Numbered from the stretch's first letter, positions 625 to 25,050 are shown. The stretch is 32,000 nt of DNA from Acaryochloris thomasi RCC1774 (GCF_003231495.1 NZ_PQWO01000023.1:1-32000); one strand, 5' to 3'. The notes: generated by a model from the sequence alone, not told the origin. Numbers and translations: made by a program.

Positions 625-3600
625 TTAGACCACCTTTTTGGAACGACTACGCAATCGCCGTCTGGGAGCAGAATATGAGCTGGAACGATTAGGTTTTCTA
701 TCCAGTGTTTCCAAGGCTGCTTGAGTCTCCCGAAGATTTAGCTCAAGTAAGTGCTCGAATAATTGCAAGCCAATCTCACGGTACTGAGGCTGACGATGTA
801 GTTGAATCACAATTGTGGTCAAGCTTTCTGCGACGAGTATTGAAGGTCTAGTAGGGTTGGTCAGTTCTTCCCCAATTCCTAAGAGGCTCTGACAAACCTC
901 AACAACTATTTCAGGATGGGAGTTGACTAAATCCTCTTCCTCAATAATTTCAACCAAAACATTGGCAGCTTCAATAAGGATGCTCTGATTCTTGCACACT
1001 GCTTCAAGAATCTGTAACATCCCATCACACAATTGGAATATATCTCGGCTAAGGTGGAAAACACTGGCTATTGCATTCTGAACGGAAGAGTTTGCAGAAC
1101 TGGCAAGGTTCGTGAGAATTTCTGCAGCCATCGCTCGACAACGTGGTTGCCCCCATAGATGACTTGCTGCATGAGCAAGTCCACAAAGAACGGCCTCGTC
1201 ACCCAAAGATCGAAGATGATTGCGGATGCGGCCCAACGACCATTCATCCTGGTATTGAAAATATTGAAGTACCAGTAACTCACCATAGGCTTGGTGAGAA
1301 AATTCAGAACTATTGGTTTGAAGCATCTCTAACCATCCATGGACAGTTTCCTTTGGCTCAAACAATCCTATTGTTCGAGATATCGGAAAAAGTGCCGAGA
1401 AAAAGTTAAGAGTCTCCGGGCAGTTTCGAATCACCAAATCGAAGAGTTCTGTGGCCTCAGAACGATCTTCATTTAACAGAATTGGCATATGCCTCAATAC
1501 TTCTACCCATATTGCAGGATGATGCTCTACACCCACCTGAGATCTGATGAATTTAGCCCAACAGAGTAGATTTGGTGGATCCTGTTTGATAAAACCTTGA
1601 GCAATTGCCCTAACGATAATACATCGTCCTCCAGATAAAGCATCGTGACCGCCAAACCCAAAAAGAATAGGTGTTTTACGGTTTGAATAACTCTCTGCCT
1701 TACTACGGTGATGTCCAAGTTCGGGTCTAGTTTGCTTAGGCAACCAATCTAGTAGTAGAGCTTGAATCGAGTCAGGTAGTCCTTTGTTACGACCTGCTAT
1801 ATTGCTTAATGCACGAGCTGCGTTTTCGCAAAGAGACTCTGATCTAAATCCCCTAATACTTATGGCCTCAACAATTTGAACTAGCTGTTCTGCGGGATAG
1901 TCAATCTCTGAGAGGCTAATCAATGAAGCTGCAACATAGCTTTCATGACGTTGTGGATGCAGTTGAGGCAGAAGCCGCAGGAAGCGTTCGGGATCATTTT
2001 TTATAAGATTGCCAAAAGCTTGTGATTGCTGATTTGCTCCACCAGATCTTGAGTTACTTAGATGCCTATTACGCATCGAGCGTTCCCCTCTGGTTCCGTC
2101 ATGTAACTCATCAAATAGCCTCAGCAGATGCTGGTCACTGGCATGCTTCATTTCCTCACTGGTGACTCTTGGGCCAATCAATGGGTCTTCGCACATAAAT
2201 GGAGTTCGATCTTCTTCTATCACCCAAGGAAAAGCACGAATCTCTTCATCTATCAGTCTTTTCCCTGTCAAACTTAAGCAATCATCTGGAAAAGCGAGTA
2301 AAAGTTGGAGACGGTGTTGACGATTATATTTCAGGAAGCCAAGCCGCTTACCGGCACTGAATGTATCGATAGGGCTGCAATAATTAAATTTACGAATAGC
2401 ATTTTCAATCTTTTCTCTATCCTCAGGGTCTAAATGAGGACAGACAGAAGAAATGAGACGCTTGGTCTCAAAGTGACACCCTTCAATACCATCTCCAAGA
2501 CATAAGCGTCTTTTATCGCCAAGGAGATAGGCTAATATCGTCTGTGGAACTTGTTCTGCTATTTTCTCTAAACCACGCGCAAATAGTCTATGTACCAATA
2601 ACAGATCAGATTCCTGATTGTCCTCAAGAAATTTAAAAAACTGCTCTCTATTATTAACGGCTAAATCAGTTATGGCAACCAGGATTGCCTCAACAACTTC
2701 TCCATGATAATGATCTAAGCCCATGGAATGATCATTGCGATAGCTGGTATCACTACCACTATTCTCTATGGAAATTTTCTCGATAACATCAATGACCCAT
2801 GGCCAAATAGTATACAGAAACGCTTCGGAATTAACCTGAGCAAATTTTTCAATTTCATATAGGTCACCCTTGCTCTCAAGCAACCGTCTTACATTTTCCA
2901 CAAATGAATAATTATATTCCTCAACCTCGCTCGTCTCGAACGGTGGTTCTGGAACCTGTATCTGACTAGTCTCAATTGCCTTGGCTAAAAGGAAGTCCAG
3001 GTGGGCAAGAATGACCCTCGGAGCATCATGGGGAAGAGCTTCATCAATTTTTTCAGCAATCCCTGAAACTTCATGCCACTCAATTTTGGAACGGCGAATA
3101 ATTTGCTCTGCGAATCTAACTCTTTGAGGTGTCCAATGATCGATATTCCATAGCACTCGAATGCTTAAGAAGTCATAGGTCTGATTATGTAACCAATAAC
3201 TTTCTAAAAGCTGCCATACTTCCTCAGGTGCAAAACTAGCTGCCACGTACAGAAGTGGCCGACAGTATACCGCCTGCTCAGCGGTTTTCGCTAACCACTG
3301 TGTAAACTCTGGGCTACTGCGTAAGTGGTTAAACCAGCCTTGACTACCTACCGTCACCTTCAGAACTTTAATCCCTTCTGCTTCTGAGTTGAGGAGAGGG
3401 ATAAGTAATCTCGCCTCGACTGAATCAGGATTAGTCTGCGCTCCCATAAATTCCAACAGAAGACTACGTATATGAGTTCTGATCCGATATTGTTCAGCCT
3501 GCATCAGGCTAGTTAACTGTTTTTTATACTGTAGAGAATCTGTACCTCGCAGATAACTGAGACCTCTGAGCAGAATAGGGCGAACGAAGAGACCACTCTG

Positions 3601-5403
3601 ACGTTCTAGAACGATATCTATGAGTGATTTTGTACCACGCGCAAAAGAACGTGCTAGCGCATGATCATAGTAGGTCTGATGACGGAAGCCAATATTTCCG
3701 TTCTCAGAATTGGTCGTGAGTACCCCTGCCTGTTCTAATGTTTGCCTAATTTTCGGTGAAGTATCGGAGATCGCGCTAGGTACCCATAGCACCTCCTCTT
3801 CAGTCATGCGTTCAGCCAGCTTTTCTAAAAAAGTTACACATTGCTCAGCTTCAGTTTGGTTTGTTACTCTTTTCGCCCATAGATGGTCTAGCAGTTTCTG
3901 AGAGGAGGAAAACACATCTCCAGGTTGAGCAACTTCAAGAAAAATATTTAAGTGGAGCGGATTCTGAAGTACTTCTCTTAACGGCTCCCCCATATTGTCA
4001 GGTAAATGTCCTCCTTCCTTGAGAATTGCAGCAACATCATCCCACGCAGGAAGGTTCAAAAATAATTGATCAATATAGCTAAGACGGTGCAGTTGAGAAC
4101 TATAGCTGAATTCAAACTCCCGACAGGTTGCAACAATATGAACGTTCTCGCTACCAGACAATCTTTGGATCAAGGACAATAGGAGATTCAATCGCTGAGA
4201 CTTGAGATCAAGAAGTTCAGATATTGCATCTAACTGATCAACTAGCAATACAACCGGCTCTTTCCCAGAAATTGCTAGCATTGCATCAATGGGGTGCAAA
4301 TCAAGGTGCAAATCAAGCTGTAAGTCCTCAATCGTTTGGATAGCTCCGTTGAGTTCATCAGCTTTGATTGCCAGAACAACATATCCTTGCGCGCACAATT
4401 CTTTCCCAAAGGTTGCCATTAATGCAGATTTACCCACACCAGGAGCACCTAAAACAATTGTTGTAGAAGTCGTACTACTCTTAATACGTCCCAACAAGTT
4501 AACTAGTTCAGGACGAGAAATATGCCTTTGATTATTTAGGGTCTGACGAACCGAGAGTAGTCCTTTAGAAGCTAACAACAGATTCTGCTTAATCTGACCG
4601 TACTGATCAGCACTTATTTCGGAAGATACACCTGTATCTATTGCTTCTCCAATAGCCTGTAGAGCTTCCCGAGTTCGTTCATCTCCTGCACTAAATTTCT
4701 GTATTAGTTTTTTAATGTCCTCCATCGACTGTCCATATTGTTGCATTTCTATCTGAAAATTAGATATCGAAGCTAGAATAAAACTAGCAAATGCCTTACC
4801 ATCTTTTGTAAAGTCCTCAGCTAATACGGTTCTAAAGGCCAGCGGGAAAAATTGCTGTACTTCGTCAGCTAGAGACTGCATATCATTCTGAGTCAAATGA
4901 TATAGTTGCCGAGAGAATAGTCCCATTCCTTCTGTTGGCGATGTCCTCCCTTCAAGTCCCTTTAAGATTAAGCACCACTCTGATTGAGATAGGAATATCT
5001 CATTGTCAGCATTCAGACGAATGACTTTATTCCTGCCTGCCACTATGCAATTTTGTGGTGCTAAGACTTCTAGCCACTGATGTGATGCAATCTTTGACAT
5101 TGCAACAAGCTTTGCTTTGATTGGACTAAATTCTCTTTGTTTAGAGATGGATGTCAGTGTTGCTGCTAGGGCTTTACCAATGCACTTTATCAACGCATTC
5201 GTTTCTAGAGCATCATGCCGCGATAATCGTTCCGAAATATCACTCCAGACATGCTCCCAATTGCTAGCGACTAAGCTCCCTGCAACCCCGGAAACAGCAG
5301 CCCCTGCCACTCCTGCAGGTAAGCATGATGCTGTAACCAATAATCCGCTGTATACAACCAAATTCACAAAACTAGAGCGGTCAATGTTTTCAGCTAAAGG
5401 CAT
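625..5403 (-). CDS. NACHT/STAND-type P-loop NTPase, 1592 aa. Domain order: N-terminal Gly/Ala-rich hydrophobic segment, about 270-aa helical domain, NTPase, about 1150-aa helical-repeat-like C-terminal region.
   Basis: Uninterrupted 1592-codon ORF. Walker A GAPGVGKS is at aa 319-326 (nt 4426-4449). Walker B-like VVLLVDQLD is at aa 384-392. IVATCRE at aa 423-429 sits where NACHT proteins carry hhhTSR. aa 13-46 read VNLVVYSGLLVTASCLPAGVAGAAVSGVAGSLVA. The DNA is visibly AT-richer than both flanks. Confidence 0.8.
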   Translation of the reverse strand: MPLAENIDRSSFVNLVVYSGLLVTASCLPAGVAGAAVSGVAGSLVASNWEHVWSDISERLSRHDALETNALIKCIGKALAATLTSISKQREFSPIKAKLVAMSKIASHQWLEVLAPQNCIVAGRNKVIRLNADNEIFLSQSEWCLILKGLEGRTSPTEGMGLFSRQLYHLTQNDMQSLADEVQQFFPLAFRTVLAEDFTKDGKAFASFILASISNFQIEMQQYGQSMEDIKKLIQKFSAGDERTREALQAIGEAIDTGVSSEISADQYGQIKQNLLLASKGLLSVRQTLNNQRHISRPELVNLLGRIKSSTTSTTIVLGAPGVGKSALMATFGKELCAQGYVVLAIKADELNGAIQTIEDLQLDLHLDLHPIDAMLAISGKEPVVLLVDQLDAISELLDLKSQRLNLLLSLIQRLSGSENVHIVATCREFEFSYSSQLHRLSYIDQLFLNLPAWDDVAAILKEGGHLPDNMGEPLREVLQNPLHLNIFLEVAQPGDVFSSSQKLLDHLWAKRVTNQTEAEQCVTFLEKLAERMTEEEVLWVPSAISDTSPKIRQTLEQAGVLTTNSENGNIGFRHQTYYDHALARSFARGTKSLIDIVLERQSGLFVRPILLRGLSYLRGTDSLQYKKQLTSLMQAEQYRIRTHIRSLLLEFMGAQTNPDSVEARLLIPLLNSEAEGIKVLKVTVGSQGWFNHLRSSPEFTQWLAKTAEQAVYCRPLLYVAASFAPEEVWQLLESYWLHNQTYDFLSIRVLWNIDHWTPQRVRFAEQIIRRSKIEWHEVSGIAEKIDEALPHDAPRVILAHLDFLLAKAIETSQIQVPEPPFETSEVEEYNYSFVENVRRLLESKGDLYEIEKFAQVNSEAFLYTIWPWVIDVIEKISIENSGSDTSYRNDHSMGLDHYHGEVVEAILVAITDLAVNNREQFFKFLEDNQESDLLLVHRLFARGLEKIAEQVPQTILAYLLGDKRRLCLGDGIEGCHFETKRLISSVCPHLDPEDREKIENAIRKFNYCSPIDTFSAGKRLGFLKYNRQHRLQLLLAFPDDCLSLTGKRLIDEEIRAFPWVIEEDRTPFMCEDPLIGPRVTSEEMKHASDQHLLRLFDELHDGTRGERSMRNRHLSNSRSGGANQQSQAFGNLIKNDPERFLRLLPQLHPQRHESYVAASLISLSEIDYPAEQLVQIVEAISIRGFRSESLCENAARALSNIAGRNKGLPDSIQALLLDWLPKQTRPELGHHRSKAESYSNRKTPILFGFGGHDALSGGRCIIVRAIAQGFIKQDPPNLLCWAKFIRSQVGVEHHPAIWVEVLRHMPILLNEDRSEATELFDLVIRNCPETLNFFSALFPISRTIGLFEPKETVHGWLEMLQTNSSEFSHQAYGELLVLQYFQYQDEWSLGRIRNHLRSLGDEAVLCGLAHAASHLWGQPRCRAMAAEILTNLASSANSSVQNAIASVFHLSRDIFQLCDGMLQILEAVCKNQSILIEAANVLVEIIEEEDLVNSHPEIVVEVCQSLLGIGEELTNPTRPSILVAESLTTIVIQLHRQPQYREIGLQLFEHLLELNLRETQAALETLDRKPNRSSSYSAPRRRLRSRSKKVV

Positions 5404-5509
5404 TAGGATATTTCTCTAAGTTTTGTCTATTGTGTATTCTAGTAAATTGATCTTCAGGTTTTAGTTCAGTACATCAAGAACTAAGATTCTTACCTAAACT
5501 TCAGCGATC

Positions 5510-6157
5510 TCAACGTGCAACACCCACCACAATCCGCCCTCCATAGAAGCGATCTCCCTGCGACTCCAGCACAAAGCCCCCGAGCAGCAGTCCCAACCAC
5601 AGCCTCCCATAGGAAAGTTTCAGCACTTTCTTAAGCTTCTGTAGACTCACTTTTCCTCCCGAGTTGACAAGCTGCTGTGAGATCGCATCCACCCACGCCT
5701 TCACATCCTCTTCCTCCACCACAGAAAGCACCTCCTCAGCCTCCTGCAGATCCAGCTCTTGCAGCAGCACCTCCTTTTCCACGATCGCAACCACAGACTC
5801 CACTTCATCTTTGGGAAACGTCCGCCGCGTCACGGGTTCAGGTTCAGCGATCAAATCATCCAGCTCAAACGACATCGATTGCCGCACCAGCCCCTCTAGC
5901 GCATCGAAGTCTAGAACTGGCCCCTCTTCACTATGAGCCTGCCGCCAGTCCCCCAGCAACACATCCGCCCGCCGACTGAAGACATCTGCAATCTGAAGAA
6001 ACGCCTCACCCGCTGTCGCCAACTGCTGACGTTCCGGTATCTCAGTCAGCATCAGATCTAACCCCAGACACAATTGCTCCACATCCGTCTGCTCGGGATA
6101 GTCCTCAGCGATCGCAAGCTGCTGCCACAGATCTAGCTCTAACTGAACGACACTCAT
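5510..6157 (-). CDS. Strongly acidic hypothetical protein, about 215 aa from the ATG at 6157.
   Basis: The ORF has codon usage and GC like the host and contains HIP1 at 6108-6115. The ATG at 6157-6155 shares one base with the TGA stop (6159-6157) of the upstream gene (TGATG overlap), which argues for this start over the GTG at 6199. The sequence is rich in D/E and has a hydrophobic C-terminal end (RLWLGLLLGGFVLESQGDRFYGGRIVV). Confidence 0.6.
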   Translation of the reverse strand: MSVVQLELDLWQQLAIAEDYPEQTDVEQLCLGLDLMLTEIPERQQLATAGEAFLQIADVFSRRADVLLGDWRQAHSEEGPVLDFDALEGLVRQSMSFELDDLIAEPEPVTRRTFPKDEVESVVAIVEKEVLLQELDLQEAEEVLSVVEEEDVKAWVDAISQQLVNSGGKVSLQKLKKVLKLSYGRLWLGLLLGGFVLESQGDRFYGGRIVVGVAR

Positions 6158-6645
6158 CAGTTTGCCTCTGGATGCAGCGGACAAGGACGGATCGGGCACT
6201 GGCTCGGATTCAACTCCACCTGAGATTCAAACCGCTCCAACAGGCATTCTTCGAGCTGCCCGGAAAAGCTATCGAGGATATCCCGCGAATACTGCTTTGC
6301 TTGAGAACCCGTCCACCCCAGACAATGCACAGGTTCAACTTTTGCCACTTGCTTCCCGCCCACCCATAGCTCTGCCGCGATCGCATGGAGGGGCGCATCC
6401 TTCCGCTCTCGATAGAGATGCAAAATAGCGGCAGGGGTCTGAGGGACAGCAACCGTTACTTCTGGGATAATCTTGCCGGTTACGATCGCATACTGCTGTT
6501 TCTTCTGCTTGTTGTAGCGATCGCGGTTGCGGTAACCGTGGCGACGGACGTGGCAAGGTTGACCGACCCAACAGTCTTTCTCTTTCGCCTCCGTCACGGG
6601 CAGCTTGGCACAGCGCCTGCATTTTTCAGAGATCGCCCGAGCCAT
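6157..6645 (-). CDS. Cys-rich, basic hypothetical protein with a zinc-ribbon-like N-terminus, 162 aa.
   Basis: N-terminal C-x2-C ... C-x5-C-H (CRRCAKLP...DCWVGQPCH) is followed by a basic stretch (RRHGYRNRDRYNKQKKQQ). The C-terminus carries C-x4-C-x2-H (CPIRPCPLH). Two HIP1 sites lie inside. It is translationally coupled to the downstream acidic ORF. Confidence 0.6.
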   Translation of the reverse strand: MARAISEKCRRCAKLPVTEAKEKDCWVGQPCHVRRHGYRNRDRYNKQKKQQYAIVTGKIIPEVTVAVPQTPAAILHLYRERKDAPLHAIAAELWVGGKQVAKVEPVHCLGWTGSQAKQYSRDILDSFSGQLEECLLERFESQVELNPSQCPIRPCPLHPEAN

Positions 6646-6823
6646 TCAAACGCACTCCAGCCGTAGAATCCAAAATCTGGACTCATCCTACCACAGCTTA
6701 TTCGTCATAGTTTAGTCATAGCTAAGATATTAGCCACATATTTTATATTTGAATATTCCTCTATATCGGAACCCCCGCGAGGAAAGCAGATGGCGATCGC
6801 AAATAAGCGAGTTCCCCCAGTAA

Positions 6824-12832: not shown

Positions 12833-13342
12833 ATGCGCCATTATCTAAACGTTCCTGTCTTTTTGAGCCTATGTCTGTTGGTGTTGCCTTTGACTGCCTG
12901 CAGCAGCAGCACTCCCCAAAGCACGTCCGCTGAAACCGAACATTCTGCCGATGATGGCCACGACCACTCAAAAGATGGAGAAGAACACTCTGCCGATGAC
13001 GGACATGACCATAGTGAACATGAGCTGCATTCCAAGGGTGGTCAGGTGGTTGAATCAGACCCTTACCATATTGAGCTGGTCACGAAACCCAAAGACGATG
13101 GAACTCAGCTCAACTTATATCTTCTCCATGAAGCGGAAGAGCGAGTGATTACCGATGCCCAAGTGACAGCCAACGTTCAGCAACCAGACGGGGAGCAACA
13201 AACTGTCAAGTTGATTTACAAGCCTGCCGAAGAAGGCTACACGGGCTTACTGGCTGCGCAAGCCACAGGCCAATACGATTTAGTCGTGCAAACTGATATT
13301 GGCGGCGAAAAGATTAACAGCCGATTTAGTATCGAGAGATGA
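12833..13342 (+). CDS. His-rich periplasmic lipoprotein with a beta-sandwich-like (YtkA/FixH-like) C-terminal domain.
   Basis: The ATG at 12833 is preceded by AAGGAG. The signal peptide carries a lipobox (LPLTAC). HSADDGHDHS occurs twice, followed by EHELH (nt 12938-13030). I reject the longer ORF-track start at 12605 because it overlaps the DUF190 gene and has no signal logic. Confidence 0.8.
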   Translation: MRHYLNVPVFLSLCLLVLPLTACSSSTPQSTSAETEHSADDGHDHSKDGEEHSADDGHDHSEHELHSKGGQVVESDPYHIELVTKPKDDGTQLNLYLLHEAEERVITDAQVTANVQQPDGEQQTVKLIYKPAEEGYTGLLAAQATGQYDLVVQTDIGGEKINSRFSIER

Positions 13343-13408
13343 GGGAAGATATTGGAAATTGACAACCCCACGTAAAGTTAATTAACTAATTTGTATCGCA
13401 GGCATCAA

Positions 13409-13431
13409 TTTCATTTGTGTTTTATTTTCAT
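13409..13431 (+). promoter_or_regulatory. Class I direct-repeat box (TTTCAT-N5-TTTTAT-TTTCAT) upstream of the small peptide 1 / DUF2808 / RR1 / HK1 genes.
   Basis: The block of about 28 nt is conserved with 7236-7264. It lies 44 nt upstream of the peptide ATG. Confidence 0.4.
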
Positions 13432-13474
13432 GACATAGGCTGATCACTATCAGTTCATACAGTTGTAAAAAGTC

Positions 13475-13675
13475 ATGAAAACCAGTAGAGCCTTCATGGG
13501 TATTCTGTTGACAATATTGATGTCAGGGATGCTTTTGCCAAGCCGAGCCTCAGCTAAATCTATTGTTGTCTGTGGACCTAATGGGGCTGCTCGAATTGTT
13601 GATCAGGTGCCGGTTGGTTGCCACATCTTGAAGGCAAATACACCACCGAAGAGCAGCTCTAACTCTAGCTCATAA
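13475..13675 (+). CDS. Small secreted Cys/His peptide, copy 1: 66-aa precursor, about 39-aa mature part.
   Basis: It has a canonical Sec signal (MKTSRAFMGILLTILMSGMLLPSRASA|KS). The mature part IVVCGPNGAARIVDQVPVGCHILKANTPP is conserved with the second copy at 24482-24700 despite many synonymous codon differences. Confidence 0.7.
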   Translation: MKTSRAFMGILLTILMSGMLLPSRASAKSIVVCGPNGAARIVDQVPVGCHILKANTPPKSSSNSSS

Positions 13676-13907
13676 TATTCTGGCGGTGTGCTGACAGTCC
13701 TCAAAAGTCGATTGTCGGCACATCGCCAATAAATTGAGTTAATACCCTCTGAATAGTCTATCTTTTACATTTTTTCAGGATGGACTTTTAGAAGTGACGG
13801 TGCGACTGTTGCTAGAAATTTTAGCAGTAAGCAGTTTATATTTTTGTTTTTCAATATTACCGAAATTCATCATAAATCGACTTACCAAGGTTCACAGAGA
13901 GAGAAAA

Positions 13908-14378
13908 ATGTTTAAATTATCAACAATAGTACTTGCTGGGGGATTATTCCTAGCTTCAGTACCGACCTGGGCTGCGACGATTCAAGATGCTCCAGTCCCC
14001 TATCTAACCTCTAGTCGCTCGGTTCCACGGAATGCCCTTGCTCCCTTTGCAAAATATCAGTTTGGGCTAAATGTTTCGGGGTATCCCGTCTCCCAGCTCT
14101 CAATTGGCCTCCCAGAGCGAATGACGGTTGGCAGGATCTCTGTTCGAGGTGCAGACGGACAGGTGATTGAGGCATCAACGATGGTCGAAGATCGAACTGC
14201 CGTGATTAAGTTTGCTCAGCCTGTCTCACCCGGTACCGCACTCAGAGTTGAGCTATCCTCTGTTCGCACCCTGTCAATGTTGGGTCGGGTATGGCTGATG
14301 CCCGTCACTGTTCGTGGGACTGAATCAGCTAAGGACTTGTCGGTTGGGATGGCCCGCATCCACACTTACAACAATTGA
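13908..14378 (+). CDS. Secreted DUF2808-like protein (a family I recall as cyanobacteria-restricted).
   Basis: The ATG at 13908 gives a signal peptide (MFKLSTIVLAGGLFLASVPTWA|AT). The body (YQFGLNVSGYPVSQLSI...VIKFAQPVSPGTALRVELSSV...MARIHTY) matches my recollection of the DUF2808 pattern. The ORF-track GTG start at 13794 is rejected. Confidence 0.7.
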   Translation: MFKLSTIVLAGGLFLASVPTWAATIQDAPVPYLTSSRSVPRNALAPFAKYQFGLNVSGYPVSQLSIGLPERMTVGRISVRGADGQVIEASTMVEDRTAVIKFAQPVSPGTALRVELSSVRTLSMLGRVWLMPVTVRGTESAKDLSVGMARIHTYNN

Positions 14379-20726: not shown

Positions 20727-21062
20727 TTACTTTGCAACGCTAGCGATTTGGCGATAGGCGTCAGCCGATGTACGACAGGCTTGAGCACACTTTTTGCAGT
20801 GTTCCATCTCGTACTGTTCACACTCTTGGGCGCAGGCTTCGCAAATGTCAGCACAGGCTCTGGAAAGATGAGAGACAAAGTAGGAGCCTCGAACCATAAA
20901 AGTCGCTGCCGTGCGGCAGATTTCAGCGCAGTCTAAGCAAGTGCGGGCACACTTGATCATTTCTGGCTCTCCGATGCAGGCTTCAGCGCAGTGTTCGCAT
21001 TCCACCATGCACTTCATCGATTTATCGAAGCTGGATTGGTATTCTTCGTGATTTAACAGCAT
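20727..21062 (-). CDS. Cys-rich four-helix-bundle copper-binding protein (DUF326/Csp-like).
   Basis: The 111-aa protein has repeated CxxxC/CxxC motifs on predicted helices (CMVECEHCAEAC, CARTCLDCAEIC, CADICEACAQEC, CKKCAQAC) and no signal peptide. Confidence 0.85.
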   Translation of the reverse strand: MLLNHEEYQSSFDKSMKCMVECEHCAEACIGEPEMIKCARTCLDCAEICRTAATFMVRGSYFVSHLSRACADICEACAQECEQYEMEHCKKCAQACRTSADAYRQIASVAK

Positions 21063-21195
21063 GTTTTCTCCCTGGATAGACTTTTGAAGCGAAATTCGTC
21101 GTCATTCGCACCTTAAGTTTTCTTTCTCAGGGGCGCGTCCACCAGAAGTTGGAAAGGTGAAATCCATCAAAATCTATCGAATTAAATAGGGTGAT

Positions 21196-21216
21196 CTCAT
21201 CCTGATTTCATATTTG
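21196..21216 (+). promoter_or_regulatory. Class II direct-repeat box (TCTCAT-N5-TTTCAT), copy a. It lies in the divergent region between the csp-like gene and the DUF2933 gene.
   Basis: tctcatcctgatttcatattt differs by 1 nt from the copy at 24881. The hexamers have 11-bp spacing, as expected for OmpR-family binding sites. Confidence 0.5.
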
Positions 21217-21448
21217 TATGCTTCTTAGTCTATAAGTTTCAGCTACAGTGTTTCTGAGCTGATCGGAGATATAAATGTTCCACAATAGGCAGCAAGAATA
21301 GAACTTCATTTCCATCTCATAATCTTCTGTATTAATGATGGAGGTAAGCTCTCTAGATTTATTCTTTGAATGAATGGAAGCATGTCTATGGAAGAGATAT
21401 TTTTTCTAATACTTAATAAATCGAAGGGCCAAATGATATTTTTGTCAG

Positions 21449-21467
21449 TTGATTTAACACAAATCAA
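21449..21467. promoter_or_regulatory. 7-5-7 palindrome just upstream of the DUF2933 RBS.
   Basis: TTGATTT-aacac-AAATCAA ends 22 nt before the ATG at 21489. It could be an operator or a 5'-UTR hairpin. Confidence 0.3.
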
Positions 21468-21488
21468 GAAAATATTGGGGAGATTTTT

Positions 21489-21689
21489 ATGTCTAGACAT
21501 CCTCCCTTGAGATGGCGGTGGCGGTCTCCGGCTGGAATCGCGCTGCTAGTCTGTCTGGGAATAGTTGCCTTTTTGCTAGTGGCGAAAGCTCCTGTTCTGC
21601 CTTGGCTTTTCCTGCTTATTTGCCCACTGATGCACTTGTTCATGCATGGCGACCATGCTGGAAAAGGTAAACACAGCCAAGATCACTGA
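21489..21689 (+). CDS. DUF2933 family small membrane protein.
   Basis: It has two TM helices and the characteristic CPLMHLFMHGDH motif followed by a His-rich tail. GGGGAG lies 7 nt upstream of the ATG. Confidence 0.75.
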   Translation: MSRHPPLRWRWRSPAGIALLVCLGIVAFLLVAKAPVLPWLFLLICPLMHLFMHGDHAGKGKHSQDH

Positions 21690-21727
21690 GGAAGAGGTTC
21701 AAAATAAAGAGAACTCATTCTTCTGTC

Positions 21728-21759
21728 TTGACCCTATAGTCTACTGTAGAGTCTAAGGT
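21728..21759 (+). promoter_or_regulatory. MerR-type promoter/operator upstream of the merR-RR2-HK2 genes.
   Basis: The sequence is TTGACC, a 19-20 bp spacer, then (C)TAAGGT. The spacer contains the dyad ACCCTATAG-TCTA-CTGTAGAGT (7 of 9 complementary). It lies 30 nt upstream of the merR ATG. Confidence 0.7.
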
Positions 21760-21788
21760 TGAATCAGTTGTTTTGAGAGGGGCGTTCA

Positions 21789-22205
21789 ATGGCTGTCGCA
21801 ACACGCTTAAGGATCGGTGAGGTTTCTAAGCGAACTAGCATTGCTGTCGGGGCTTTACGCTATTACGAAAGTCTGGGTCTACTCCAGTCAGAGCGGGGGG
21901 ACAATGGCTATCGCTATTATCCTGAAGAAGCTGTGCAGCAGGTGCAGTTCATCAAAAAGGCACAGGCTTTGGGCTTCTCCCTAGAGGATATCCATGAGGT
22001 GCTGAATGTTCATCGGCAGGGAGACGTGCCCTGTGAGTTTGTCCAATCGCTTCTGCAGGAAAAGATTGAGCAGCTTGAAGCTCAAATTCAGAAGATGACG
22101 GCCTTCAAAGTAGAGCTGGAGGACTATCAAGATCGTTGGGCCACCCGTCAGCCCCGCCCCCAACCGGGCGATATCTGCCCCCTCATCTCAACAGTTACGT
22201 TGTAA
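21789..22205 (+). CDS. MerR-family heavy-metal-responsive transcriptional regulator.
   Basis: N-terminal HTH (LRIGEVSKRTSIAVGALRYYESLGLL), a dimerisation helix, and candidate metal-binding Cys residues (GDVPCEF and GDICPL). A MerR-type promoter lies directly upstream. Confidence 0.9.
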   Translation: MAVATRLRIGEVSKRTSIAVGALRYYESLGLLQSERGDNGYRYYPEEAVQQVQFIKKAQALGFSLEDIHEVLNVHRQGDVPCEFVQSLLQEKIEQLEAQIQKMTAFKVELEDYQDRWATRQPRPQPGDICPLISTVTL

Positions 22206-22912: not shown

Positions 22913-24242
22913 GATAAAGCTCTTTCGCCAGACGCGCTGGCGCTTGGCAAGCTGGTATGCCGGAGTGATGGGGATTATTCTTGTCCTGAGCGGTTTTGGG
23001 GTCTACGAAGCCATTGACCATGCTCACCGCACAGCGGCAGACCGAGAATTGCAGGCGTTCGCAGGCCGACTGCACGACAATCTAGAACCCACGCTACAGC
23101 AGCAAGGAGAAATCCCAGCTAGCGCTCAGCGCTTCCTCCCTGATGCCTGCATTCGTACCAGTCAATGTTTAGACGCTACTGCCAGTCACTCACCCGGAGA
23201 CATGTTCCAGGGCAACTATTTTATTCGGCTTCTGAGTCCCACAGGAGACCTTATTGTGCTGGCCGGACTGAAGCCACAGGGGTTAGCGATCACCTCACCC
23301 ACTGCTGAGTGGCAGTATCTGACAGATGAGCGCAGCATTCGCTACCGCCAAATTACAGTTCCTTTGCAGAATCTTGACACACCGCTTTGGGGGTACCTAC
23401 AGGTGGGCAGCTCTCTTGAGGATTCTGATCGATACCTCACATCGGTGAGATTTGCGCTCTTTGCTGGCTTTCCTCTAGCGCTAGCTTTTGTTGGAATCGC
23501 AGGCTGGTGGCTAGCGGGACGAGCTATGCAGCCCATTCGTCAGTCCTACCAGCAGATGCAGCAGTTCACTGCCGATGCAGCCCACGAGTTGCGAACCCCT
23601 ATTGCTGCAGCCCAGGCAACGGTGGAATCGGTGCTAGATACGCCACATTTATCGGAGACCGATGCCCGCGAAACCTTACAGGTTCTAGATCGACAGCATC
23701 AGCGACTGTCTCAACTGATTCAGGATTTGCTGTTGCTAACGCGCTTAGACCGTCAAGTGCAGACCCAGCAGAATGATTCATGCTGCCTTCAAGATGTGGT
23801 GAATGACATCGCGGAAGAGTTGGCAGCTCTAGCTTTGAACAACAAGGTCAAGCTTCTGACCGACATTCAGGTCGAGCAGCCACTGTGGGTCAACGGGGAT
23901 GAGGCGCAGCTCTACCGACTCGTGTTTAATTTAGTCATTAATGCACTGCAGCATACGCCTGAAGGCGGGGCAGTTACGCTTTTGCTGAATGAGCCAGACC
24001 AGCAGGCGGTAATCCAGGTGCAGGATACGGGGGTGGGAATTGCACCTGAATACCAAGCGAAGATCTTTGACCGCTTTTATCGGGTGAATAGCGATCGCAA
24101 CCGACAAACAGGTGGCTCGGGGTTGGGGTTAGCCATTGCTGATGCGATTGCTCAAGCTCATAAAGGCAAGATTCAGGTCCAAAGCCAACTGGGCCAAGGG
24201 AGTATCTTTAGGATTTATCTTCCGTCTGCAGAAACTCCCTAG
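22905..24242 (+). CDS. Sensor histidine kinase (CopS-like), paralog 2.
   Basis: The architecture matches 15140-16486, with H-box AAHELRTPI and G-box GGSGLGLAI. An ATGAATGA overlap joins it to the regulator gene. Confidence 0.95.
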   Translation: MNEIKLFRQTRWRLASWYAGVMGIILVLSGFGVYEAIDHAHRTAADRELQAFAGRLHDNLEPTLQQQGEIPASAQRFLPDACIRTSQCLDATASHSPGDMFQGNYFIRLLSPTGDLIVLAGLKPQGLAITSPTAEWQYLTDERSIRYRQITVPLQNLDTPLWGYLQVGSSLEDSDRYLTSVRFALFAGFPLALAFVGIAGWWLAGRAMQPIRQSYQQMQQFTADAAHELRTPIAAAQATVESVLDTPHLSETDARETLQVLDRQHQRLSQLIQDLLLLTRLDRQVQTQQNDSCCLQDVVNDIAEELAALALNNKVKLLTDIQVEQPLWVNGDEAQLYRLVFNLVINALQHTPEGGAVTLLLNEPDQQAVIQVQDTGVGIAPEYQAKIFDRFYRVNSDRNRQTGGSGLGLAIADAIAQAHKGKIQVQSQLGQGSIFRIYLPSAETP

Positions 24243-24322
24243 AATTGGCATTAATACTTAAAGCTAAAGGTGGCGAATATCTCCAATTTGGATATTTGTT
24301 AAAAACTAAAACTGATTACTTT

Positions 24323-24343
24323 TCTCATTCTGATTTCATCTTT
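24323..24343 (+). promoter_or_regulatory. Class II direct-repeat box, copy b, upstream of small peptide gene 2.
   Basis: tctcattctgatttcatcttt. AGTAG follows 9 nt after the box, the same offset as in copy c. Confidence 0.5.
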
Positions 24344-24481
24344 GAAATCTAAAGTAGAGGTAGTTCATTATGCAGCATTAAAGTCATGAGATAAATTGAG
24401 GTTTTTATTGGTGCAGCCTTAATTGCTGTAGGGCACCTCGAAAAATAGATTTCCTTAAGGATCTTGCAGTCTGAAACCCTT

Positions 24482-24700
24482 ATGACATCATTGAAAATTC
24501 TCAATTGGCGAGATTTTATTCTCAGTAAGGTCAATTATTCGAGGTGCCCTGTATCTCTCTTCAGTATGGGGTTAATCAATCGTGTCTCTGCAAAAACACT
24601 GGTTGTTTGTGGTCCGAATGGGGCAGCAAGAGTTGTGGAGAAAGTTCCTGCTGGCTGCCATGTTCTCAAGACAAATACTCCGCCAGCTATGGCATCATAG
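24482..24700 (+). CDS. Small Cys/His peptide, copy 2. The start is uncertain (TTG 24464, ATG 24482 or ATG 24566) and the signal peptide looks degenerate.
   Basis: The mature region LVVCGPNGAARVVEKVPAGCHVLKTNTPP is about 75% identical to copy 1, with many synonymous codon changes. The N-terminal region is homologous only near the cleavage site (LFSMGLINRVSA|KT). Confidence 0.55.
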   Translation: MTSLKILNWRDFILSKVNYSRCPVSLFSMGLINRVSAKTLVVCGPNGAARVVEKVPAGCHVLKTNTPPAMAS

Positions 24701-24713
24701 ACCGCGATCTTAG

Positions 24714-24869
24714 GTAGTTCTGACAAATTCATATCAGTACTTGGGAGGCAAACTGTCTCCTAAATACCTTCCTCCATTCTCGGTGTGGCTCTTCCCCATG
24801 ACCGGGCGAGGCGCAGAAATGACAACAGATATTCCCTTGGGGATGGCTCGAATTTCTACCTATGAATAA
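24714..24869 (+). pseudogene. 3' remnant of a DUF2808-like gene (paralog of 13908-14378). The N-terminal two thirds or so are deleted.
   Basis: My own translation reads ...FSVWLFPMTGRGAEMTTDIPLGMARISTYE*. It aligns with the C-terminus of the intact copy, GRVWLMPVTVRGTESAKDLSVGMARIHTYNN*. There is no start codon or signal peptide, and the frame opens just after a TAG at 24711. Confidence 0.6.
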
Positions 24870-24880
24870 GAGCCTGGGTA

Positions 24881-24901
24881 TCTCATTCTGATTTCATATT
24901 T
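24881..24901 (+). promoter_or_regulatory. Class II direct-repeat box, copy c, 150 nt upstream of copA.
   Basis: tctcattctgatttcatattt. It lies downstream of the DUF2808 remnant and upstream of the multicopper oxidase gene. Confidence 0.55.
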
Positions 24902-25050
24902 ATGCTCCACAGTAGTGACTAGGGTATTTCCTCATACCTCACACCATAAATTGCTGTAGACATCAGAGAGATGTTGAAAAGCTTTCTGATGTTTACTCCT
25001 TCTTTCTCTATATTTGTTGTTCATCTAGCTACCATTCATCGCGCAACGTC

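Follow-up and report, generated by a model that had tools for sequence, protein, structure and literature searches.

A 32,000-nucleotide stretch of the genome of the marine cyanobacterium Acaryochloris thomasi RCC1774 (GCF_003231495.1, NZ_PQWO01000023.1:1-32000; the whole of it is called the window below) carries, at positions 625 to 5403 on the minus strand, a giant gene for a STAND-type nucleoside triphosphatase (NTPase). We found that the encoded protein is a new effector variant of the STAND proteins related to Avs7 and PDC-M54A, in which the effectors are swappable. Judged by the sequences of its closest relatives, it most likely serves as a single-protein anti-phage sensor of the Avs7-related kind. 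By analogy with other receptors, its helical N-terminal domain (N-domain), which has a hydrophobic tip, probably attacks the cell membrane. An earlier note on this DNA had proposed a single-protein, defense-like STAND sensor with an N-terminal effector, and this was borne out by the swapped N-termini of the homologues and by the homology of the NTPase to SeAvs7, an anti-phage protein of Salmonella enterica.

The gene and its product

The open reading frame (ORF) on the minus strand is 100% identical to PZD70994.1/WP_110988437.1 of A. thomasi RCC1774, labeled "hypothetical protein C1752_08436" in the database. WP_110988437.1 consists of three modules: the N-domain (amino acids [aa] 1-262), the NTPase with a winged helix (aa 311-700), and a C-terminal region (aa 701-1592). 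Translation of the coordinates confirmed the description in the earlier note of one 1592-codon gene with the motifs GAPGVGKS, VVLLVDQLD, and IVATCRE in this order. The ~320 aa that the note placed ahead of the NTPase core agree with a P-loop that begins at aa 319, and the Gly/Ala-rich hydrophobic N-terminus was also found as described; it corresponds to aa 12-47 and has a 19-aa Kyte-Doolittle (KD) maximum of 1.78. The features of the gene are as follows.

625 to 5403, minus strand: complete gene (1592 codons plus stop) according to ORF call and translation; ATG start, stop codon at 625-627.
4618 to 5403, minus strand: N-terminal helical domain in effector position, aa 1-262; member of a cyanobacterial family of N-terminal domains of nucleotide-binding leucine-rich repeat (NLR)-like receptors that is without annotation.
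5263 to 5370, minus strand: hydrophobic Gly/Ala/Val/Ser-rich segment FVNLVVYSGLLVTASCLPAGVAGAAVSGVAGSLVAS, aa 12-47; predicted helix-break-helix hairpin with Arg9 ahead of it and small-xxx-small (glycine-zipper-like) spacing.
4786 to 4848, minus strand: N-domain signature motif FPLAFRTVLAEDFTKDGKAFA, aa 186-206; F186, D197, G202, and A204 nearly invariant, in a helix modeled with a predicted local distance difference test score (pLDDT) above 90.
4474 to 4617, minus strand: junction and pre-NTPase linker, aa 263-310; first segment shared with PNP, SEFIR, and TIR homologues and thus the domain-swap boundary.
3304 to 4473, minus strand: STAND NTPase and helical/winged-helix module, aa 311-700; homologous to SeAvs7 ~270-660.
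4426 to 4449, minus strand: Walker A GAPGVGKS, aa 319-326; G322, G324, and K325 invariant in 55 homologues.
4228 to 4254, minus strand: Walker B VVLLVDQLD, aa 384-392; D389, Q390, and D392 invariant in 55 homologues.
4117 to 4137, minus strand: sensor-1 IVATCRE, aa 423-429; R428 invariant and aligned with SeAvs7 Arg395.
3673 to 3687, minus strand: winged-helix FRHQT, aa 573-577; H575 invariant and aligned with SeAvs7 His545.
628 to 3303, minus strand: C-terminal helical region of ~890 aa, aa 701-1592, the presumed sensor; conserved at 48-65% identity in the cyanobacterial homologues.
5404 to 5509, minus strand: upstream intergenic region, AT-rich (31% GC), with a weak sigma-70-like site at 5513-5486 (9/12 matches).

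The NTPase module is homologous to that of SeAvs7

In the Protein Data Bank (PDB), 9n00_A was the sole significant relative of the protein (no other entry had an E value below 1e-4). It was matched by the query alone (E 4.2e-18; aa 303-692 against chain 270-658) and by a 55-member family profile (E 4.6e-63; chain 160-661). The entry 9N00 is apo SeAvs7 from S. enterica (Lee, ..., Koonin and Gao; bioRxiv 10.64898/2026.01.04.697583; Nature 2026, PMC13581612; also 9N01/9YIX). Avs7 is an anti-phage STAND protein with a bilobed TPR sensor that binds the HK97-fold major capsid protein; it forms a tetramer with EF-Tu and activates its N-terminal Cap4 nuclease (PMC13581612). In SeAvs7, Arg395 contacts the ATP gamma-phosphate and His545 the ADP beta-phosphate (Lee et al., PMC13581612), and these residues correspond to Arg428 and His575 of the query. 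The two proteins also have the tripartite layout and the approximate size in common (1592 aa in the query, 1523 aa in SeAvs7). They differ in the effector, which in SeAvs7 is a Cap4-type nuclease and in the query a helical domain with a hydrophobic hairpin, and the similarity of their sensors is at the detection limit.

The features that define the STAND class (Leipe, Koonin and Aravind 2004) were found in the query. These are a Walker A of the form GxxxxGK[ST], a Walker B of the form hhhhD, the sensor-1 arginine (R428) and the winged-helix histidine (H575), the latter two assigned by alignment to SeAvs7. The tripartite layout is likewise present, with a swap boundary at ~263 that is followed by the NTPase and then by the conserved C-terminus of ~890 aa. 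Since K325, D389, D392, R428, and H575 are all invariant, we conclude that the NTPase switch is intact.

The only Pfam family that passed its threshold in the NTPase was AAA_16 (33.7 bits against a cut-off of 32.6; E 6e-8; aa 299-379). NACHT (PF05729) failed, with 17.4 bits against a cut-off of 26.7 (E 0.0042; aa 314-428), and the matches to nSTAND1, nSTAND3, and nSTAND5 in this region were also under threshold. Thus, of the NACHT-like core described in the earlier note, the P-loop STAND motifs hold, while the assignment to NACHT does not reach the Pfam cut-off. The NCBIfam equivalog model for Avs4 (NF041815) matched at 40.5 bits, far from its cut-off of 1500 (E 5e-11; aa 292-586, NTPase region only). 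Avs4 and bNACHT proteins resemble the query in having a P-loop STAND core and the effector-NTPase-sensor layout, but the query lies far under both family thresholds and is a member of neither.

The best PADLOC match was the candidate system PDC-M54A (E 2.4e-21; aa 314-588 against profile 319-610 of 1621). Its total length is similar to that of the query, and fragments of SeAvs7 also match PDC-M54A best. However, the query matches it through the NTPase region only, and the "M" in its label suggests a multi-gene system, yet the neighbors of the gene described here match nothing in PADLOC. No mention of PDC-M54A was found in the literature searched.

A conserved body is combined with exchangeable N-termini

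Approximately 100 proteins share the linker, the NTPase, and the whole C-terminal region of the query (aa ~263-1592; termed the body) at 48-65% identity, and remoter relatives at 20-30% identity span the same residues. Essentially all of the ~100 proteins are from filamentous cyanobacteria, the named sources being Coleofasciculus, Trichocoleus, Microcoleus, Leptolyngbya, Nodosilinea, Nostoc, and Lusitaniella. When the first 310 residues of the query were aligned locally with these proteins, homology started at aa 263-271 in nearly every homologue, and the shared start was preceded by 12, 100, 170, 250, or 460 residues. S279, L282, R297, E299, and L300 are conserved in the linker. The SEFIR homologues seemed to match aa 147-262 as well, but this was rejected, as pairwise alignments identified it as an extension artifact driven by the strongly conserved aa 263-309.

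According to precomputed Pfam annotation, the N-termini of the body homologues are PNP_UDP_1, SEFIR/TIR, CHAT, EAD (PF19955), or TPR; PADLOC labels some of them PN-superfamily effector/PDC-M60C and bSEFIR. Because the alignments begin at aa ~263 whatever the N-terminus of the partner, aa 1-262 occupy the freely swapped effector position. The cyanobacterial PNP-, SEFIR/TIR-, and CHAT-STAND paralogues (P0004, a Coleofasciculus "phosphorylase family protein"; P0005; P0062 of Lusitaniella; P0045 of Myxacorys) thus have the same body as the query and differ in their own N-termini, which are enzymatic or signaling effectors, whereas the query bears the helical N-domain. Exchange of effectors is also a property of the Avs7 family, for which at least 20 different N-terminal effectors, with labels including "TM" and "unknown", and extensive horizontal transfer were described (PMC13581612).

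Two homologues viewed in their genomic context lie among other PNP-STAND genes. In Phormidium/Leptolyngbya sp. CLA17 (locus L001) and Leptolyngbya sp. PCC 7375 (locus L003), body homologues are found within clusters of several PNP_UDP_1-STAND paralogues. Genes for small CcbP-like calcium-binding proteins are interspersed among these paralogues at L001. A MoxR-type AAA_5 gene is located near the cluster at L003, where a separate gene for a 127-aa PNP fragment, 11 bp upstream of the STAND gene, may represent a split effector.

The N-domain belongs to a cyanobacterial family of receptor N-termini

Among the homologues retrieved with the body, the N-domain was detected only in three 976-aa Limnospira NACHT proteins (P0108 to P0110; 24% identity, E 3e-12). 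An exhaustive HMMER search with a three-sequence profile against 1.84 billion representatives yielded 280 clusters with an N-domain at E<=1e-3, 138 of them at E<=1e-10. A word-indexed search with aa 1-273 returned zero matches, not even the parent protein; Gly/Ala-rich low-complexity queries may suit a word index poorly. For almost every one of the 150 best representatives, the match begins within the first ~50 residues. Pfam domains following it were assigned in 50 full-length members: NB-ARC was present in 26/50, NACHT in 15/50, nSTAND1 in 6/50, and individual TPR families in up to 22/50; the carriers combine an NB-ARC, NACHT, or nSTAND1 core with TPR or HEAT. A NACHT protein and an NB-ARC/TPR protein carry the nearest N-domains (31-35% identity). 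Every member with a named source is cyanobacterial (Roseofilum, Kamptonema, Limnospira, and unclassified cyanobacteria), and the annotation of these members refers to their other domains only.

The family has the signature consensus FPxALREVLKxDFxxxGKAFAG (also found as FPxALRxVLKxDFxxxGKAFAG) and a second motif, N-x-DL-x-KAVG-x-AIA. A hydrophobic stretch near the N-terminus is a conserved feature of the whole family: it is rich in Gly, Ala, Leu, and Val, is preceded by a basic residue, and reaches a KD value of >=1.6 within the first 90 aa in 92 of 105 members. Runs of four small-xxx-small spacings near the N-terminus were counted in 69/105 members, compared with a mean of 42.6 and a maximum of 55 in shuffled sequences.

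With an alignment of three N-domain sequences, AlphaFold2 gave a useless model (pLDDT 42), and a 105-sequence model was used instead (mean pLDDT 70.7; predicted template modeling score 0.62; 11 helices). The core helices at aa 68-117, 140-154, and 172-222 were modeled with a pLDDT above 90. There is no Pfam model for the N-domain, and a scan of ten near-domain-only proteins at E<=10 gave noise only. The N-domain was invisible to NCBIfam and PADLOC, and a PDB profile search with the N-domain alignment detected no solved structure related in sequence.

When the N-domain hidden Markov model was applied to the six-frame translation of the window, one copy only was found, and none was found in the other body homologues (110 other proteins). 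Conversely, the body of the query had no match among the 150 N-domain representatives. Since the N-domain is absent from the other bodies and the body from the N-domain carriers, the protein is a chimera of two mobile parts. Among the proteins retrieved, it is the only one in which this body is combined with the N-domain. The earlier note had stated that this architecture is not a recognized one. The body, on the contrary, belongs to a described clade related to Avs7 and PDC-M54A, and TM-type effectors are listed for Avs7; what remains of the statement is that the N-domain has no Pfam or structural relative and that the fusion was seen only here.

Two observations on individual members were made. 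In Limnospira fusiformis and its relatives (P0108 to P0110, ~976 aa), a long, very hydrophobic multi-pass C-terminus replaces the TPR, and these proteins appear to be embedded in the membrane at both ends. A metagenomic protein of 522 aa (P0112) contains two consecutive N-domain copies, at 15-228 and 236-401, either by tandem duplication or as an assembly artifact.

The C-terminal region has a possible, weak similarity to the Avs7 sensor

The earlier note had described the C-terminal part as helical and repeat-like. It is helical in composition, but self-BLAST detected no internal sequence repeats in it. A 55-sequence profile had two weak matches in the SeAvs7 sensor (profile 892-1067/chain 943-1102, independent E value [i-E] 0.089; profile 1163-1332/chain 1203-1368, i-E 0.049), and both are colinear with the NTPase match, from which their offset hardly differs. 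A distant family member (P0103), which aligns to aa 292-1565 of the query, has a match to PDC-M54A in the sensor part of that profile (1160-1468; whole-protein E 1e-8), and a fragment of the SeAvs7 sensor matches the PDC-M54A profile at 1264-1320 (E 0.004). When a SeAvs7 fragment rebuilt from a printed alignment was used as a query for homologues, only truncated proteins of <=675 aa were retrieved. These weak sequence matches are compatible with a possible relation to the bilobed, TPR-like Avs7/Dsr1 sensor and, hence, with a capsid protein as a possible trigger.

Proposed mode of action and alternatives

On balance, and with moderate confidence, we favor the view that the gene encodes a single-protein anti-phage pattern-recognition STAND receptor of the Avs7/PDC-M54A clade, the N-domain hairpins of which would form a leak or pore in a membrane. 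At rest, the protein would be an autoinhibited, ADP-bound monomer with His575 on the beta-phosphate. Binding of a phage protein to the C-terminal sensor would act as the trigger; the HK97-fold major capsid protein is a guess by analogy to Avs7. Binding of ATP, with Arg428 on the gamma-phosphate, would then lead to oligomerization, and in the resulting clusters of N-domains the Gly/Ala-rich hydrophobic hairpins (aa 12-47) would become exposed or rearranged. By assembling in the cytoplasmic or thylakoid membrane, the hairpins would create a leak or pore, and the depolarized infected cell would be killed or arrested ahead of phage release, which would amount to abortive infection.

We infer membrane disruption from the hydrophobicity of the segment, its effector position, and analogy. 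The earlier note had taken the effector to be a membrane-disrupting helix. The hydrophobic segment is conserved, as described above, but the effector unit is a helical domain of ~262 aa, and its mechanism is a proposal. The analogy is to the N-terminal helices of Bell, HeLo, CC, and MLKL type in NLR systems, which target membranes; a Bell-like domain acts in abortive infection. Bell-type domains are common in cyanobacteria, and their hydrophobic N-terminal helix is thought to be released on oligomerization. Bell/Babybell, fungal HeLo/Hell, plant CC, and MLKL domains resemble the N-domain in that they are helical, occupy the N-terminus of NLR-type receptors, and have a hydrophobic helix close to that end. 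Unlike the query, the Bell/HeLo-like domains comprise 80-130 aa, in which four helices cup a single N-terminal one, and have a conserved N-terminal motif; the N-domain of the query comprises ~262 aa and ~11 helices, with a two-helix hairpin starting at aa ~9-12, and its first ~8 residues are polar. No similarity between the N-domain and Bell, HeLo, CC, or MLKL was detected in Foldseek, Pfam, and PDB profile searches, and it is set apart from the Bell proteins by description, not by sequence alignment.

Several results weigh against the proposed mode of action. The hairpin helices at aa 9-27 and 34-62 were modeled with a pLDDT of only 51-63, and Foldseek detected no fold relatives of the N-domain (best E 0.83 in PDB and 0.55 in BFVD; TM-scores ~0.2 or lower). 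The hydropathy is modest (KD 1.78), and a permanent anchor could equally well consist of two short helices with their ends in the cytosol. Sensor-only PDB searches, performed with a single C-terminal sequence and with a 9-sequence profile, did not recover 9n00 at E<=10; therefore, we do not claim homology to the Avs7 sensor, and the capsid trigger is speculative. The window holds no defense island: the gene is accompanied by orphan genes and a copper-resistance island, no PADLOC match was obtained for the three adjoining ORFs, and the others have no Pfam defense domain. In addition, searches for tRNA genes, mobility genes, and noteworthy direct or inverted repeats at the flanks were negative.

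A more far-reaching form of the proposal, which we put forward tentatively and regard as possible but doubtful, concerns the N-domain itself. The 262-aa helical domain may be a new, cyanobacteria-wide class of NLR-coupled executioner of cell death, the glycine-zipper-like hydrophobic hairpin of which would form pores on STAND oligomerization. Such a domain would be unrelated in structure to Bell, HeLo, CC, MLKL, and gasdermin and would represent an independent invention of a "resistosome pore", exchangeable between NB-ARC, NACHT, nSTAND1, and Avs7-type sensors.

Alternatively, the protein could be the same defense STAND with the hairpin as a permanent N-in, C-in membrane anchor, inserted cotranslationally, so that the protein would always be on the cytoplasmic or thylakoid membrane. 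In variants of this explanation, oligomerization would distort the membrane from the embedded state, or the location would serve sensing (e.g., at injection or assembly sites) with the helical part of ~200 aa as the effector. The basic residue ahead of the hydrophobic stretch, Arg9 in the query and "RLL" in the family consensus, is as expected for an N-in helix, and two helices with a Pro/Gly break between them are predicted. Moreover, the Limnospira proteins with multi-pass hydrophobic C-termini are membrane proteins anyway, and the best-conserved and best-modeled parts of the N-domain are the helices 68-117 and 172-222, not the hairpin. However, the second hydrophobic helix of the query is short, with ~6 residues deleted relative to its relatives, and its segment has a Gly/Ala/Ser-rich composition with only moderate hydropathy, as is seen more typically in pore-lining or sequestered helices than in simple anchors. 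Further, the homologues with enzymatic effectors are without such an anchor, so that sensing by this body does not require a location at the membrane. We consider the anchor rather unlikely.

The N-domain could also be an EAD- or Death-like adaptor without a killing activity of its own, which after oligomerization would recruit a separately encoded effector bearing the same domain or a complementary one. In favor of an adaptor, a helical domain that is fused promiscuously to several unrelated STAND clades is EAD-like, and EAD domains (PF19955) are present on some body homologues. One N-domain member (P0115) additionally has a sub-threshold match to Pfam EAD11 at aa 118-145 (17.6 bits against 26); the match is in a poorly modeled stretch between the core helices of the N-domain and may be noise or a hint of an adaptor. 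On the other hand, the 32-kb window contains no second N-domain copy, and EADs comprise ~80 aa and lack hydrophobic hairpins. Almost all of the 150 best representatives have the domain at their N-terminus, a STAND core follows it in the 50 full-length members scanned, and it was not seen on enzymes; the short members look like contig-end fragments or bear only coiled-coil tails. Because no second copy is nearby and no enzyme fusions were seen, an adaptor appears improbable.

Base composition and origin of the gene

The GC content of the STAND gene is 0.430, and it ranges from 0.40 to 0.46 across 500-bp windows; the value of 30-40% given in the earlier note was too low. Both immediate flanks have a GC content of 0.55-0.56, close to the 55% stated there, but the remainder of the 32-kb window averages only 0.506. 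The gene is the lowest-GC stretch of 4.8 kb in the window; every 4779-bp segment to its right has a GC content of >=0.478. Three more patches of ~1 kb with 43% GC (13001-14000, 21001-22000, and 24001-25000) show that the STAND gene is not alone in its low GC content. These patches contain few or no long ORFs, are far shorter than the gene, and look mostly intergenic. The GC content at third codon positions (GC3) is 0.353 in the STAND gene and 0.44-0.62 in the 25 other ORFs of the window (mean 0.541; standard deviation 0.051; z = -3.68). The windowed GC analysis suggested in the earlier note thus confirmed that the gene is compositionally distinct.

The highly iterated palindrome 1 (HIP1; GCGATCGC) is strongly overrepresented in the window (14 sites; 0.56 expected). 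No site lies between 506 and 6107 and, thus, none within the STAND gene, as the earlier note had observed; a spacing of one site per few hundred bp in the flanks, which it had also reported, is true only at 6108-6800. The HIP1 density outside the gene (0.51/kb) predicts 2.5 sites inside, and the probability of finding none is 0.086; other HIP1-free gaps in the window measure 5.08 kb and 4.46 kb. Because the gap is not significant on its own, we rejected the absence of HIP1 as stand-alone proof of foreignness, and the HIP1 comparison that the earlier note had suggested did not by itself distinguish the gene from its flanks. Somewhat better support for a distinct composition is given by depletion of the HIP1 submotifs GCGATC (0 inside the gene, 1.07/kb outside) and CGATCG (0 inside, 0.77/kb outside).

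Composition argues for a recent acquisition of the STAND gene, which was probably acquired horizontally. The idea of foreign DNA inserted between native genes is supported in this respect (GC3 z = -3.7), but not by the traces of insertion that were sought, as listed above. Body homologues elsewhere likewise have a low GC3 (0.38 and 0.31). The Phormidium homologue contains seven HIP1 sites, compared with none in the A. thomasi gene, and one SEFIR-type homologue resides on a 38.6-kb Nostoc plasmid. At 43 loci anchored on the AcrB-type gene of the window, the order HlyD-AcrB-YtkA-response regulator-kinase is kept, and the genes for the double-stranded RNA (dsRNA)-binding protein, the STAND protein, and the 229-aa and 162-aa proteins are present at 0/43; no close Acaryochloris is among these loci. 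Relatives of the flanking 229-aa ORF were not found in 185,579 species genomes. We infer that the STAND gene arose by effector swapping between NLR-like families.

Neighboring genes

On the plus strand, an ORF at 3-566 that is cut by the window start ends in a dsRNA-binding motif (Pfam dsrm, 1.5e-9, aa 124-186); no RNase III domain was detected in its first 123 residues. It converges on the STAND gene, with 58 bp between the stop codons. Directly upstream of the STAND gene, two overlapping ORFs are located on the minus strand, one for an acidic protein of 229 aa (5510-6199) and one for a Cys- and basic-rich protein of 162 aa (6157-6645). Both have a native-like GC3 (0.61-0.62), four HIP1 sites near them, and no Pfam or PADLOC match. 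Given their native composition and the lack of such matches, the neighboring genes were rejected as partners in a STAND system. The number of promoter-like sites upstream of the STAND gene was not above that in shuffled sequences, and the sigma-70-like site is only suggestive.

The 162-aa ORF and the HlyD gene are separated by an intergenic region of 41% GC that contains a 20-nt inverted repeat (6824-6843/7006-7025), the arms of which are 95% complementary and 162 nt apart; this repeat could serve to regulate the efflux operon. Positions 7479-31451 are mostly a copper/metal-resistance island, with genes for an HlyD-type adaptor and an AcrB-type RND pump, DUF190 and YtkA-like proteins, two response regulator/histidine kinase pairs, a P-type ATPase, a MerR regulator, two multicopper oxidases, CopB, a DUF305 protein, and a Cys-rich DUF326 protein. 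Homologous RND loci are often plasmid-borne in other cyanobacteria (Tolypothrix, Nostoc, and Leptolyngbya Cla-17).

With metal-resistance and orphan genes but no defense genes around it, transcription regulators among the STAND clades, and database labels that read merely "hypothetical" or "ATP-binding protein", the gene could encode a regulatory or housekeeping STAND/AAA ATPase (e.g., a switch tied to the adjacent metal-resistance genes) or be a recent acquisition that is no longer functional, but we consider this very improbable because of its relatives, the closest of which bear conflict effectors (PNP, SEFIR/TIR, and CHAT) and the closest solved one of which is a proven anti-phage protein; moreover, Pfam and NCBIfam scans detected no DNA-binding or signaling output domain in the protein, its composition is sharply unlike that of the adjoining metal genes, which argues against coevolution with them, and the uninterrupted 4.8-kb ORF with all catalytic residues intact argues against decay.

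Implications

A giant gene of a marine cyanobacterium that was without annotation is now tied to recently characterized phage sensors of the Avs7 type. Almost no cyanobacterial STAND defense proteins have been tested, and a homologous reference with a solved structure helps. The more interesting part is the N-domain family, which comprises at least 280 clusters, is found on NLR-like receptors of four NTPase clades, and has no fold relative. Were the N-domain only an anchor or an adaptor, the protein would be an ordinary case of effector shuffling. If the domain acts as a membrane-disrupting executioner, it would represent a bacterial counterpart to the plant CC, fungal HeLo, and animal MLKL domains and would provide a compact model for turning receptor oligomerization into membrane damage.

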